The notes beneath the pieces are model-generated. The model was given only the letters and a program-made list of their open reading frames with translations. It ran no database searches and had not been told where the DNA came from. Below, in pieces: positions 1 through 4,954 of a stretch of DNA of 4,954 bases. Positions within the stretch are counted from its first letter, which is position 1; the number at the start of each line of letters is the position of its first letter. A program made the position numbers and the translations under genes. The DNA comes from a virus (taxonomy: Duplodnaviria > Heunggongvirae > Uroviricota > Caudoviricetes): IMG/VR virus record IMGVR_UViG_2579779052_000005; one strand, 5' to 3'.

Positions 1-294
1 GTTGCGCACGTATTCGGTGAACGCACTATGGCGACGCTGGGGCGTCTTATGAGCCTGCTGTCACCCTTTGACGTGGTGATATGGATGACGGATGGCTGGC
101 CGCTGTATGAATCCCGCCTGAAGGGAAAGCTGCACGTAATCAGCAAGCGATATACGCAGCGAATTGAGCGGCATAACCTGAATCTGAGGCAGCACCTGGC
201 ACGGCTGGGACGGAAGTCGCTGTCGTTCTCAAAATCGGTGGAGCTGCATGACAAAGTCATCGGGCATTATCTGAACATAAAACACTATCAATAA
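1..294 (+). CDS. insB: IS1 transposase InsB reading frame, C-terminal part (5'-truncated by window edge)
   Basis: ORF track 28..294 is the Met-initiated tail; the frame is open from base 1 and matches InsB as I recall it. Stop TAA at 292-294. Confidence 0.93.
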
Positions 295-309
295 GTTGGA
301 GTCATTACC
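287..309. repeat. IS1 right terminal inverted repeat (IRR)
   Basis: atcaataagttggagtcattacc; its reverse complement ggtaatgactccaacttattgat matches the IRL at 4472-4494 at 18 of 23 positions, including the shared core ccaactta-tgat. Confidence 0.9.
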
Positions 310-521
310 ACCAATCTGTTATATTATATATAGCTGCGTGGAATCATAATATCATATATTTTGACTGGCATGTTTACCAAATTTAAGTTGCATCTCAATG
401 GTTTCTTCAGCGTAAACAGAGTTTTTATACAAACTGACACTCTGGGTATCATAGTGTAGTTTTTACGATTGTAAATATCCTGTATGCAGGAACTCATCCT
501 TTTGGATGATATCGCATACAA

Positions 522-1481
522 TTAATTTACCATCAGTCTTAGAGCCAGTTCGTCCGGATAGGGATCGAAGTAATTCTGTGTAAGCAAGTAATCATTAGGA
601 TACTCACCCAGATAATGCTTCAGCAGAGTCAACGGCGCAAGAAGAGGTAATGTGCCAGAACGATAGTTAAGTATAACCTCGCTCAACTCTTTACGCTGGC
701 GTGTACTTAAGTAGTTACTAAAATACCCCTGTATATGCATCAGCACATTCGTGTGATTTTTACGTGATGCAGGTTTTCTGAGAATCGCCATCAGCTTATC
801 ACGATACACCTCAAAGTATGATTCAAGATCCGCCCACTCGTGTATTGCAGCCACAAATGGTCCCATATCTTTATAGCCTGTCTGACTATGCGCCAACAAC
901 TGAAGCTTATAACGACTATGAAAAGCCAATAACTCTCTTCTTGATAATTTCTCCTTGTAAAGGTGATTGAGCTCATGCAAAGCAAAAACTCTTTCAACAA
1001 AATTCTCACGAAGCACTGGATCATGTAATCGCCCATCCTCTTCAACCGGTAGCCAGGAAAACTTTTCCATCAAAGTGCTCGTAAATAGTCCCACTCCATC
1101 TTTACGACCTCGATTACCATTTTCATCATAGACACGCACGCGCTCCATGCCACAGCTGGGAGATTTAGCACAAACCACAAACCCCGATACATCCTTTAAT
1201 TTGTCCATATAAGAACGACTAAACTCTGTCATTCTCTCTGTCACATCCTCATTCTGGTCGTGGCTGAAACACATCCGTATATTTCCTTGCGTCGAGCGCA
1301 CAAGACGTAGAGCAGGACGCGGAACTGGCAGCCCTATAGCCATTTCCGGACATACTGGTCTGAATGTTACCCATTCCACTAATTTGTCCATTAAAAAGTC
1401 AGCTCTTTTGTGACCACCATCAAAACGAACAGCAGAACCGGCCAAACAACCGCTGATTCCAATCACAGGTTTTTTTATCAT
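522..1481 (-). CDS. DUF523 (TudS-like 2-thiouracil desulfurase domain) / DUF1722 (YbgA-like) fusion protein, 319 aa
   Basis: The N-terminus (IGISGCLAGSAVRFDGGHKR ... VCPEMAIGLPVP ... VVCAKSPSCG) resembles DUF523/TudS with Cys at 12, 44 and 104. The C-terminal half (HSQTGY...HTNVLMHIQGYF...YRSGTLPLLAPLTLLKHYL...YLLTQNYFDPYPDELALR) resembles DUF1722/YbgA. GGAGG lies just upstream of the ATG at 1481, though the spacing is short. Recognition is from memory, not a search. Confidence 0.8.
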   Translation of the reverse strand: MIKKPVIGISGCLAGSAVRFDGGHKRADFLMDKLVEWVTFRPVCPEMAIGLPVPRPALRLVRSTQGNIRMCFSHDQNEDVTERMTEFSRSYMDKLKDVSGFVVCAKSPSCGMERVRVYDENGNRGRKDGVGLFTSTLMEKFSWLPVEEDGRLHDPVLRENFVERVFALHELNHLYKEKLSRRELLAFHSRYKLQLLAHSQTGYKDMGPFVAAIHEWADLESYFEVYRDKLMAILRKPASRKNHTNVLMHIQGYFSNYLSTRQRKELSEVILNYRSGTLPLLAPLTLLKHYLGEYPNDYLLTQNYFDPYPDELALRLMVN

Positions 1482-1673: not shown

Positions 1674-2198
1674 ATGAAGTTATGGCCTGTGTTGACTGGC
1701 ATTGCGCTCTCTTTCACTCTTATAGCATGTAAGGCCCCGACACCACCTAAAGGTGTGCAGCCGATTACAAATTTTGACGCCAACCGCTACCTCGGAAAAT
1801 GGTATGAAATAGCTCGCCTCGAGAACCGGTTCGAACGTGGTCTGGAACAGGTCAGCGCTACTTATGGAAAACGGAACGACGGAGGGATTCGTGTACTTAA
1901 CCGTGGATACGATCCAACGAAAAATAAATGGAGCGAGAGCGAAGGTAAAGCATACTTTACTGGAGATACTAAAACTGCAGCGTTGAAGGTTTCGTTTTTT
2001 GGCCCCTTCTATGGTGGCTATAATGTAATCAAACTGGATGATGAGTATAAGTATGCTCTTGTCAGTGGTCCGAACAGAGAATACCTATGGATTCTGGCAA
2101 GGACCTCAACTATTCCAGATAAAGTAAAAGCAGACTATGTGCGAACCGCTCAAAAGTTGGGATTCAATGTCAATGAATTATTATGGGTTAAACAATAA
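1674..2198 (+). CDS. blc: Blc-family outer-membrane lipoprotein (bacterial lipocalin), 174 aa
   Basis: The translation aligns along its whole length with E. coli Blc as I recall it (shared blocks NFDA.RYLG.WYEIAR...RFERGLE.V.ATY...SEGKAYFTG...AALKVSFFGPFYGGYNVI.LD.EY..ALV.GP.R.YLWIL.RT), at roughly 60% identity. Lipoprotein signal peptide with lipobox LIAC (Cys19) and Lys at +2, which predicts outer-membrane sorting. AGGA lies 7 nt upstream of the ATG. Confidence 0.9.
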   Translation: MKLWPVLTGIALSFTLIACKAPTPPKGVQPITNFDANRYLGKWYEIARLENRFERGLEQVSATYGKRNDGGIRVLNRGYDPTKNKWSESEGKAYFTGDTKTAALKVSFFGPFYGGYNVIKLDDEYKYALVSGPNREYLWILARTSTIPDKVKADYVRTAQKLGFNVNELLWVKQ

Positions 2199-2226
2199 AA
2201 TCCCTACCCGAAATGATACTTATTAG

Positions 2227-2253
2227 AAAAAAACCAGCCTTTGGGGAGGCTGG
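2227..2253 (-). terminator. Rho-independent terminator acting on minus-strand transcripts (between convergent quuD and blc-like genes)
   Basis: Perfect 7-bp inverted repeat ccagcct (2234-2240) / aggctgg (2247-2253) with a 6-nt loop. On the minus strand the hairpin is followed directly by a run of 7 U (complement of aaaaaaa at 2227-2233). On the plus strand it is followed by cuaaauc, so it is a weak terminator at best for blc. Confidence 0.6.
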
Positions 2254-2353
2254 CTAAATCAGGAAACAAGCTGTTATATGATAATAACTACGTTGCGATT
2301 CCAACATTTAAAATGTTAGACTAATGACAATCAGACAGCAACTTTTCCTTTAA

Positions 2354-2731
2354 TTATTTCGAACAATCAGCATCCATCTCCAATCGGAGATCCAACACCA
2401 TCAGCATACCCTCCACTACGCCCTCAGCTTTCTGGAGCATCCTGCCAACCCAACAATCAGATCGCCCATGCTTACGTGCAAGCGCCATAAAAGTCATGCC
2501 GCCGACATAATAGTCCACCAATAAATCATGCAAATCGCTGTTGTTCTTTTTCAGACGGGCCATGCACCCGCAAATGATCATCGCGTCATCGTCACAACAT
2601 TGTGGGCGAGATTTTACTTTTGAAGGAATTAATCCCTTAAAACCGGCGGCAATGGACGACCAGGTCACATCTTCATGATTATTAGCCGCCCACGCTCCCC
2701 AACGCTCAAGAACCATCTGAATATCACGCAT
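2354..2731 (-). CDS. quuD: Lambdoid prophage late-gene antiterminator Q (QuuD-like), 125 aa
   Basis: Translation [88 protein letters not shown]... matches DLP12 QuuD as I recall it. The ORF track's N-terminal extension MWSKL comes from a TTG; the likely true start is the ATG at 2731-2729, with GGAG 8 nt upstream. Confidence 0.88.
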
Positions 2732-4471: not shown

Positions 4472-4494
4472 GGTGATGCTGCCAACTTACTGAT
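4472..4494. repeat. IS1 left terminal inverted repeat (IRL)
   Basis: ggtgatgctgccaacttactgat; imperfect inverted repeat of the IRR at 287-309. Confidence 0.9.
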
Positions 4495-4526
4495 TTAGTG
4501 TATGATGGTGTTTTTGAGGTGCTCCA

Positions 4527-4802
4527 GTGGCTTCTGTTTCTATCAGCTGTCCCTCCTGTTCAGCTACTGACGGGGTGGTGCGTAACGGCAAAAGCACTGC
4601 CGGACATCAGCGCTATCTCTGCTCTCACTGCCGTAAAACATGGCAACTGCAGTTCACTTACACCGCTTCTCAACCCGGTACGCACCAGAAAATCATTGAT
4701 ATGGCCATGAATGGCGTTGGATGCCGGGCAACCGCCCGCATTATGGGCGTTGGCCTCAACACGATTTTCCGCCATTTAAAAAACTCAGGCCGCAGTCGGT
4801 AA
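4527..4802 (+). CDS. insA: IS1 InsA (transposition inhibitor / DNA-binding protein), 91 aa
   Basis: Translation [91 protein letters not shown] matches InsA with its zinc-finger-like CxxC...CxxC N-terminus. Confidence 0.95.
4778..4784 (+). other. IS1 programmed -1 ribosomal frameshift site (A6C slippery heptamer)
   Basis: aaaaaac at 4778-4784, lying in the insA zero frame as tta-aaa-aac, 16 nt before the insA stop. Confidence 0.8.
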
Positions 4803-4954
4803 CCTCGCGCATACAACCGGGCAGTGATGTGATTGTCTGCGCTGAAATGGACGAACAGTGGGGCTACGTCGGTGCTAAATCACGTCAGCGCTGGCTGTTT
4901 TACGCGTATGACAGGATACGGAAGACGGTTGTTGCGCACGTTTTCGGTGAACGC
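4778..4954 (+). CDS. insB: IS1 insB' reading frame, 5' part (-1 frame relative to insA; 3'-truncated by window edge)
   Basis: The -1 frame from the slippery site reads [60 protein letters not shown], matching InsB and running into the same InsB segment seen at the start of the window. It has no start codon of its own and is expressed as an InsAB' fusion. Confidence 0.85.

Follow-up and report, generated by a model that had tools for sequence, protein, structure and literature searches.

Organization of the locus

The window, that is, the whole stretch of 4,954 nucleotides analysed here, is a prophage remnant lying between two copies of IS1 (1–308 and about 4472–4954). Both copies have the same orientation, and the first and last 24 nt of the window differ at a single position; the window thus runs from inside one IS1 to the same point of the next. 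The minus strand carries, in this order, ninB, ninE, ybcO, rusA, a ylcG-like ORF and the antiterminator gene Q; the region upstream of ninB has been replaced by IS1 in the window genome. The following features are referred to below:

4221–3766, minus strand: ninB
2354–2731, minus strand: Q antiterminator of the Q21/Q933W family, 125 aa, ATG at 2731 (PF06530)
2277–2353, minus strand: spacer from the Q stop to the conserved block; no PR', QBE or StxS similarity detected
2227–2276, minus strand: block homologous to the 3' 54 nt of StxS (tR' and the preceding U-rich stretch), by alignment
2227–2255, minus strand: predicted intrinsic (rho-independent) terminator, from a unique strict match, folding energy and conservation
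1674–2198, plus strand: lipocalin (Blc-like) cargo gene, convergent with Q (PF08212, E = 7e-43)
522–1481, minus strand: cargo gene in the Q sense, DUF523 (2-thiouracil desulfurase) and DUF1722 (YbgA family) (PF04463 and DUF1722)
429–483, minus strand: putative PR' homologue, from an exact core, alignment and a profile match
1–308, plus strand: 3' part of an IS1 copy, from comparison with the intact phage L001 and the annotation of strain 14EC033

The genes flanking the interval of interest have the identities proposed for them in the preliminary description. Q matched PF06530 with 173.2 bits (gathering cutoff 26; E = 2.2e-51) and, more distantly, the Q21 structures 6P18 and 6JNX (crystal and cryo-EM; E = 1.9e-8). 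Phage IdasGreatGrand has an identical Q (100%), and over residues 1–120 the window Q shares 81–88% identity with Q of 933W-type and DLP12-type phages, the value for VT2-Sakai/933W-type Stx phages being 81%. Past LEMD (residue 120) the C-terminal tail diverges. Comparison of the window (2354–2370) with L004 (3362–3435) and L003 (3364–3384) revealed three Q types that are colinear to LEMD and then continue into unrelated tails of 5, 24 and 7 residues, indicating a module junction inside the 3' end of Q. In 933W, the sequence coding for the Q tail holds the −35 element of the late promoter PR'.

Between Q and blc lies an interval of 155 bp (2199–2353) which, as first described, is AT-rich (GC 0.37 over 2101–2400). 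The cargo genes have a GC content of 0.35–0.47, compared with 0.51 for the nin region. The interval was found in 1113 of 5426 complete E. coli genomes, E. coli B derivatives among them. In E. coli B/BL21 derivatives, Q, the interval and blc lie inside the Qin prophage (strain C2566, L010 8137–9533), and the ybgA-like gene is truncated by IS3, so that the PR' copy has been lost. Within the interval, position 2328 is hypervariable (G, C, T and A all occur among eight relatives), and the 21 nt neighbouring it, after the Q stop, are invariant among eight relatives.

A single Q-sense intrinsic terminator follows Q

The interval contains a hairpin located 98 nt past the Q stop codon (2356–2354); 28 nt separate the end of its T-run from the blc stop (2198). 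The minus strand reads 5'-AG CCAGCCT CCCCAA AGGCTGG TTTTTTT CTAAT-3' at this point, the hairpin itself being AGCCAGCCT-CCCCAA-AGGCTGGTT followed by T's. The core stem-loop (2253–2234) comprises seven Watson–Crick pairs, five of them G–C, and a 6-nt loop; in the extended hairpin (2255–2232) nine pairs form, the last two of which take up the first two T of the run. Its parts, all on the minus strand, are:

2255–2247: 5' arm
2246–2241: loop
2240–2232: 3' arm
2233–2227: T7 run

A G+C-rich stem-loop thus stands directly before a U-tract, as in an intrinsic terminator. The calculated folding energy of 2255–2227 is −14.2 kcal/mol, compared with −14.5 kcal/mol for the StxS terminator of Stx phages, and the hairpin is unchanged in eight related loci, whose T-runs comprise 7 or 8 residues. 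A generic terminator scan of the window was not discriminating (5 sites versus 4.3 ± 2.0 in shuffled sequences). A strict search requiring at least 7 Watson–Crick pairs, at least 5 G–C pairs, a loop of 3–8 nt and at least 6 T in the next 7 positions returned exactly one site in the whole window, the minus-strand hairpin after Q; of 300 dinucleotide-shuffled versions of the window, only 0.3% contained any site of this type. The position first assigned to the hairpin and U-tract (2227–2253) was accurate.

The hairpin also has the polarity attributed to it, facing the 3' end of blc. On the plus strand the stem is followed by CTAAATCAGG and a U-tract is absent; the A7 run stands before the stem, and the strict search gave no match on the plus strand of the window. 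As no U-tract follows the stem on that strand, the hairpin is unidirectional and acts, if at all, in the Q sense. By structure, 2255–2227 is a single strong Q-sense intrinsic terminator that is not a random occurrence, and it probably terminates transcription in vivo.

The terminator is homologous to the 3' end of StxS

In Stx1 and Stx2a phages, StxS is the prematurely terminated leader product of PR' (Sy, Lan & Tree 2020, PMC7547250). Its 3' end at tR' was mapped by Term-seq 258 nt from the start identified by dRNA-seq, the PR' transcript carries an RNase E site (GU|AUU) at +173, and the 3' module StxS-S binds Hfq (PMC7547250). Positions 2276–2227 of the window aligned with the last 54 nt of StxS from VT2-Sakai with 42 identities in 54 positions (E = 5e-7 in that search space), and the local alignment score of 25.5 was reached by none of 1000 shuffled sequences (10.2 ± 1.6). 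At the level of sequence homology, the block therefore corresponds to the 3' terminator and Hfq-binding module of StxS-S. The similarity does not extend further: for the 77 nt from the Q stop to the block, 486 of 1000 shuffles scored equally well against StxS. Judged by these alignments, the hairpin is tR'-like by descent and the remainder of the interval is not. The earlier designation of the hairpin as a tR'-like terminator consequently stands with respect to its origin and falls with respect to its function, given that no PR' core lies between Q and the hairpin (see below). The element is located upstream of PR' and hence is not derived from a PR' transcript in the manner of the 258-nt StxS-L, which is processed by RNase E. 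A reading of the whole interval, made by eye, as a shortened StxS-S starting near 2306 was rejected, because the upstream 77 nt are not significantly StxS-like and because PR' of Stx phages lies 258 nt upstream of tR', not 74 (PMC7547250).

We evaluated pairing with the 32-nt activating site of the rpoS 5' UTR. The rpoS-activating seed of StxS is absent from the interval, whose best duplex with this site had an energy of −8.1 kcal/mol (464 of 500 shuffles were as good); StxS itself reached −23.7 kcal/mol (0 of 500). Unconstrained duplex folding against the 230-nt rpoS leader yielded long duplexes and was uninformative. In Rfam, the best hit of the hairpin (2225–2268, minus strand) was Betaproteobacteria_toxic_sRNA at 28.6 bits, below the cutoff of 50. 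Rfam contains no StxS family, and StxS itself (L004 3602–3718) retrieved RprA at a sub-threshold E of 0.6.

The homology raises the question of whether the interval encodes an Hfq-type small RNA resembling StxS-S, roughly 50–130 nt long and ending at the hairpin, which would arise from a weak promoter of its own or through an RNase E cut in the 3' UTR of the Q mRNA; the terminator would then serve mainly as a 3' scaffold. The homologous block comprises exactly the terminator and the U-rich 3' module of the Hfq-binding StxS-S, with a tail of 7–8 U and an AU-rich stretch ahead of the stem. The interval is widespread, as noted above, and leader RNAs of Stx phages have been argued to be a source of sRNAs (PMC7547250). 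Positions 2301–2227 are also better conserved than their flanks, with 2 substitutions in 75 positions between two haplotypes, compared with 8 in 31 just upstream and 5 in 28 downstream, although a contrast drawn from only two haplotypes is weak. However, neither a promoter nor a processing site is in evidence, the rpoS-activating seed has been lost, and no Rfam family scored above threshold. On balance, we consider it unlikely that the last 50–130 nt of the interval form a stable Hfq-binding sRNA combining the StxS terminator scaffold with a different seed. If they did, about one-fifth of E. coli genomes, including B/BL21, would carry a so-far unnoticed prophage sRNA, and the StxS-type scaffold would be a mobile 3' module that phages have recombined onto new leaders.

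The PR' core of the Q933W/QuuD clade lies beyond the cargo genes

The PR' start of Stx phages is A3457 of L004, 7 nt past TATCAT, and the −35 element TTTACG overlaps the end of Q; the distance of 258 nt to the 3' end and the RNase E site at +173 (PMC7547250) both place the start at this nucleotide. The sequence surrounding it, GTTTACGATCGTAAAAA...TATCAT...AAGAGTGG, has four further occurrences: in a Morganella phage, where it likewise lies at the end of Q; in DLP12-type phages (mEp332, ev207 and 434B), past the convergent porin gene and about 170 nt before the holin gene, where it precedes the short hairpin also seen in 933W; in phages 1H12 and IdasGreatGrand, past the ybgA-like gene; and at 475–448 on the minus strand of the window. 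In an alignment of eight examples from four module types, TTTAC, CGTAAAAA, TAT..T and A.AGT are invariant and the flanks diverge. From this we defined the PR' core of the clade as TTTACRnnCGTAAAAA-n6-TATnnT.

In the window the core occurs only once, at 475–448 (minus strand), downstream of both cargo genes and beginning 47 nt past the stop codon of the DUF523/DUF1722 gene. It consists of a −35 element TTTACA (475–470), the spacer ATCGTAAAAA and a −10 element TATGAT (453–448), reading TTTACA-ATCGTAAAAACTACAC-TATGAT with the exact core at 475–460. No other site in the window matches the sigma70 consensus as well as this TTTACA-16-TATGAT arrangement (10/12). The predicted start, A441, corresponds in the alignment to the PR' start of Stx phages identified by dRNA-seq. 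A profile derived from 47 independent cores, none of them of the window type, matched 479–438 (minus strand; E = 8.4e-8), and a separate run gave E = 2.9e-9 at 429–483. At 483–429 the window thus has a core of the clade on the Q strand, downstream of a Q gene belonging to that clade, and we infer that PR' at 475–448 is the site of Q action.

The relation between Q and the core holds across the clade. TTTACRnnCGTAAAAA is present once, in the Q sense, in each of nine loci (seven phage and two E. coli chromosomal). Scanning IMG/VR for the core together with the −10 pattern identified at least 120 core-bearing stretches (L015–L134). Among the matches listed, 101 of 120 carry a gene of the Q clade (60–100% identical) upstream on the same strand; no other arrangement of Q and core was seen among them, the remaining 19 holding at most 1.9 kb of upstream sequence. 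Each Q is accompanied by a single core in 101 of 101 informative loci among the matches listed, at a variable distance that, in the same set, falls into discrete classes: 27–70 nt (933W type), about 600, about 820–910, about 1050–1085, about 1545–1681 (porin type), about 1896 nt (window type, at least 12 loci) and 2.4–4.1 kb. The porin (DLP12) type is the commonest among the matches listed, accounting for about 44 of 101. Discrete distances ranging from about 30 nt to about 4.1 kb indicate that insertion of cargo between Q and PR' is common in this clade. The StxS-like terminator has position +264 relative to the core in loci of the 933W type and −1778 in those of the window type.

The core is palindromic, with perfect 14-mers in 933W (TTTACGATCGTAAA) and in the DLP12 type (TTTACGTACGTAAA) and one mismatch in the window (L004 3423–3438, L007 4540–4555 and window 460–475, respectively). 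Since the palindrome covers the −35 element and spacer, it is a candidate Q-binding element, and the conserved core is proposed here solely as a candidate for that element in the Q933W/QuuD clade. We know of no biochemical definition of the Q-binding element of this clade. That of Q21 consists of two direct 8-bp repeats (phage 21, L136 1647–1662), unlike the palindrome of the clade.

PR' units of the 933W, DLP12 and Morganella types share a short hairpin and T-tract ending at about +50 (L004 3480–3506, L007 4598–4619 and L005 about 2965–2990). Its geometry matches the terminator of phage 21 (+3 to +50), and the StxS 3' end lies at +258 (PMC7547250). The window-type PR' is without a short hairpin at about +50.

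Gene order in intact relatives

The same arrangement is found in the intact genomes of two plaque-forming or induced phages, IdasGreatGrand and 1H12, with interval identities of 99.6% for IdasGreatGrand and 92% for 1H12 together with ten related records. Both genomes contain, in order, Q, the interval, the convergent blc, the ybgA-like gene, the PR' core and an HTH gene, followed by a second Q-sense terminator and the genes for holin, endolysin and Rz. These three lysis genes are therefore encoded downstream on the Q strand in the intact phages; in the window they have been removed by IS1, and the late genes of the genome closest to the window have likewise been removed by IS1 insertions. In the intact relatives, accordingly, the terminator after Q does stand on the Q strand with Q before it and the late genes after it.

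The second Q-sense terminator has the sequence ACGCCAGAATAATCGCTGGCGT followed by TTTTC and stands about 85 nt before the holin gene (minus strand; L002 2355–2334 and L001 3228–3207, in phages 1H12 and IdasGreatGrand). The HTH gene, which encodes 243 aa, is positioned between PR' and this terminator and would thus sit in a constitutive PR' leader. In the window, the left IS1 (1–308) interrupts the PR' leader about 133 nt past the predicted start, and the window genome thereby lacks an uninterrupted operon for Q to act on. In strain 14EC033 (L009), the severed HTH gene is found between two further IS1 copies.

Role of the terminator between Q and the cargo

The preliminary description had proposed a late promoter within 2254–2353, with Q allowing polymerase to read through the hairpin into the cargo, in antisense across blc and then in sense into the DUF523/DUF1722 gene, so that the hairpin would divide Q-dependent from Q-independent cargo expression. 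PR' and a Q-utilisation site between the Q stop and the hairpin would occupy the canonical position directly after Q, as in lambda, 21 and 933W, and the hairpin, which would then be tR', is homologous to a real tR'. The PR'–tR' unit of phage 21 is as short as 50 nt, so leader length alone is no bar to a start inside the interval. A 9/12 promoter-like match, TGGAGA-18-AATAAT, overlaps the Q stop codon at 2382–2353, its 1H12 counterpart TGGAGA-18-GATAAT has an extended −10 TG, and TATCAT-ATAACAG...GTTTC resembles 933W PR' by eye in the −10 element and the initially transcribed stretch, a resemblance that is not significant (reached by 32 of 500 shuffles).

Against this proposal, the interval lacks a PR' core, and an unfiltered search of 2199–2420 with the PR' profile returned nothing at E ≤ 100. 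The single core lies 1.78 kb downstream of the hairpin, which is therefore not placed downstream of PR' in the same transcription unit, as a tR' is. A solitary core at variable distance from Q is, moreover, the rule in the informative loci described above. The candidate −35 TTGTCA falls on the site at which all four bases occur among relatives, and 9/12 promoter-like matches are found in the window at chance frequency (13 versus 8.1 ± 3.3). Only weak promoter-like matches were detected in the spacer (2277–2353), which showed no similarity to the PR' profile of the clade, to phage 21 or to the rest of StxS; in an alignment with the pR'–QBE–SDPE–terminator region of phage 21, 204 of 500 shuffles scored as well. 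Lacking similarity to known Q-utilisation regions, the functional part of the proposal fails in silico, and the supposed division of cargo expression is contradicted by a PR' core located beyond both cargo genes. A late promoter between Q and the hairpin, with Q reading through into the cargo, thus appears improbable. From the weak promoter-like site at the Q stop, a short transcript reaching as far as the hairpin could be made.

Several individual candidates were discarded. A search for PR' by consensus within the interval yielded only the 9/12 match at 2382–2353, which is at chance level. Of TTGCTG-17-TAACAT and TATCAT/TATTAT, both picked by eye, one is located on the hypervariable site, and none was backed by profile or alignment. 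Vestigial PR' remnants next to Q, also suggested by eye (TTCGAAATAAT in the window and GTTTACTAAAAAT in DLP12), gained no support from the unfiltered profile search.

That the hairpin is instead the terminator of blc, or a bidirectional one common to blc and Q, is very improbable: it lies 28–35 nt past the blc stop, no other terminator-like plus-strand site follows blc before 3954, and the stem would form in the blc mRNA, where it could protect the 3' end, but on that strand it is followed by CTAAATCAGG without a U-tract and preceded by the A7 run, the strict search found no plus-strand match, and the homologue of the element is a Q-sense terminator of phages.

We therefore return to the hairpin as an insulator. 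In our assessment it is probably a functional insulating terminator that ends the nin–Q unit and is not overridden by Q, whose promoter PR' (475–448) is located beyond the cargo. Unmodified RNA polymerase proceeding past Q would stop at the hairpin, about 100–130 nt after Q, and nin–Q transcription would be kept from running antisense into blc or onward into the DUF523/DUF1722 gene. Q-modified polymerase would start at about 441 and head away from the cargo, at present into IS1; in the intact relatives it would pass through the HTH gene and the second terminator just before the holin gene. Starting beyond the cargo, it would never meet the hairpin at 2255–2227, and cargo situated between Q and PR' would be expressed independently of Q. 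From what holds for lambda in general, polymerase that N has modified and that comes from pR would probably pass the hairpin in the intact relatives. Gating of cargo read-through by an antiterminator could hold in this form, for N-modified polymerase in those relatives.

An insulating role fits the wider clade. Several other, unrelated classes of cargo in this Q clade likewise start with a Q-sense terminator 115–165 nt past Q residue 120, and the convergent porin gene of DLP12-type phages is directly adjoined by a hairpin in the Q sense. Taken together, the comparisons suggest that the hairpin most likely ends non-antiterminated nin–Q transcription and shields the convergent blc.

The element itself is ordinary, and nothing here would surprise a specialist in lambdoid phages; the useful by-product is a map of PR' positions in the Q clade. 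For annotation, the first terminator after Q should not be equated with tR', because in the Q933W/QuuD clade 0.6–4 kb of cargo often separates Q from its promoter. Cargo genes such as porins, the lipocalin and the YbgA-like enzyme would then be outside Q control, which alters the predicted timing of prophage cargo expression and, in Stx-type phages, which sequences must stay together for toxin or late-gene induction. The palindrome-like 14-bp core of the TTTACGATCGTAAA type offers a concrete candidate for the Q-binding element of the clade, and the apparently relocated StxS-type terminator represents a small case of phage regulatory modules being shuffled as units.

Comparison with known systems

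DLP12, mEp332 and ev207 resemble the window in several respects. Their Q (quuD) belongs to the same clade (87–88% identical), a convergent cargo gene (the porin gene nmpC) separates Q from the PR' core, the 3' end of that gene is adjoined by a hairpin and T-tract in the Q sense, and the core stands shortly ahead of the lysis genes, as a late promoter upstream of essD. For DLP12, the lysis-cassette promoter that responds to Q has reportedly been located upstream of essD, a position that agrees with that of the core found here. The DLP12 type differs in carrying a porin rather than a lipocalin and a YbgA-like gene, and its post-Q sequence and terminator are unrelated to those of the window. It also has a cargo-sense terminator beside Q and retains the short hairpin after PR', which the window type lacks.

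Morons with insulating terminators are said to have been described in lambdoid phages by Hendrix and colleagues. The window shares with them an AT-rich cargo that has been inserted among phage genes and has transcription signals on both sides, although its terminator faces phage transcription and does not end the transcript of the cargo gene itself.

The canonical lambdoid Q–PR'–QBE–SDPE–tR' cassette is represented by phage 21 (OL657228; Yin et al. 2019, bioRxiv 10.1101/651190). Within 90 bp past Q, phage 21 has a −35 element, QBEu (ATTGAGCA), QBEd (AATGAGCA), a −10 element, the start, the SDPE and a terminator (OL657228). The window has in common with it a Q of the same Pfam family and an intrinsic terminator within about 100 nt on the same strand, whereas no counterpart of its −35 element, QBE repeats, −10 element, start or SDPE is detectable before the window hairpin.

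The closest likeness of the hairpin itself is to StxS/tR' and covers a near-identical stem (CCAGCC...GGCTGG), the C-rich loop, the U-tail and about 20 nt upstream; the orientation relative to Q, which in both cases belongs to one clade, is also shared. The StxS body and the rpoS seed are absent from the window, and the setting differs: in Stx phages the terminator lies 258 nt downstream of PR' and ends the PR' leader, whereas in the window it lies 1.78 kb upstream of the core. As judged from these alignments, the element is a StxS/tR'-related terminator, an element of a known kind in a new position upstream of PR'.
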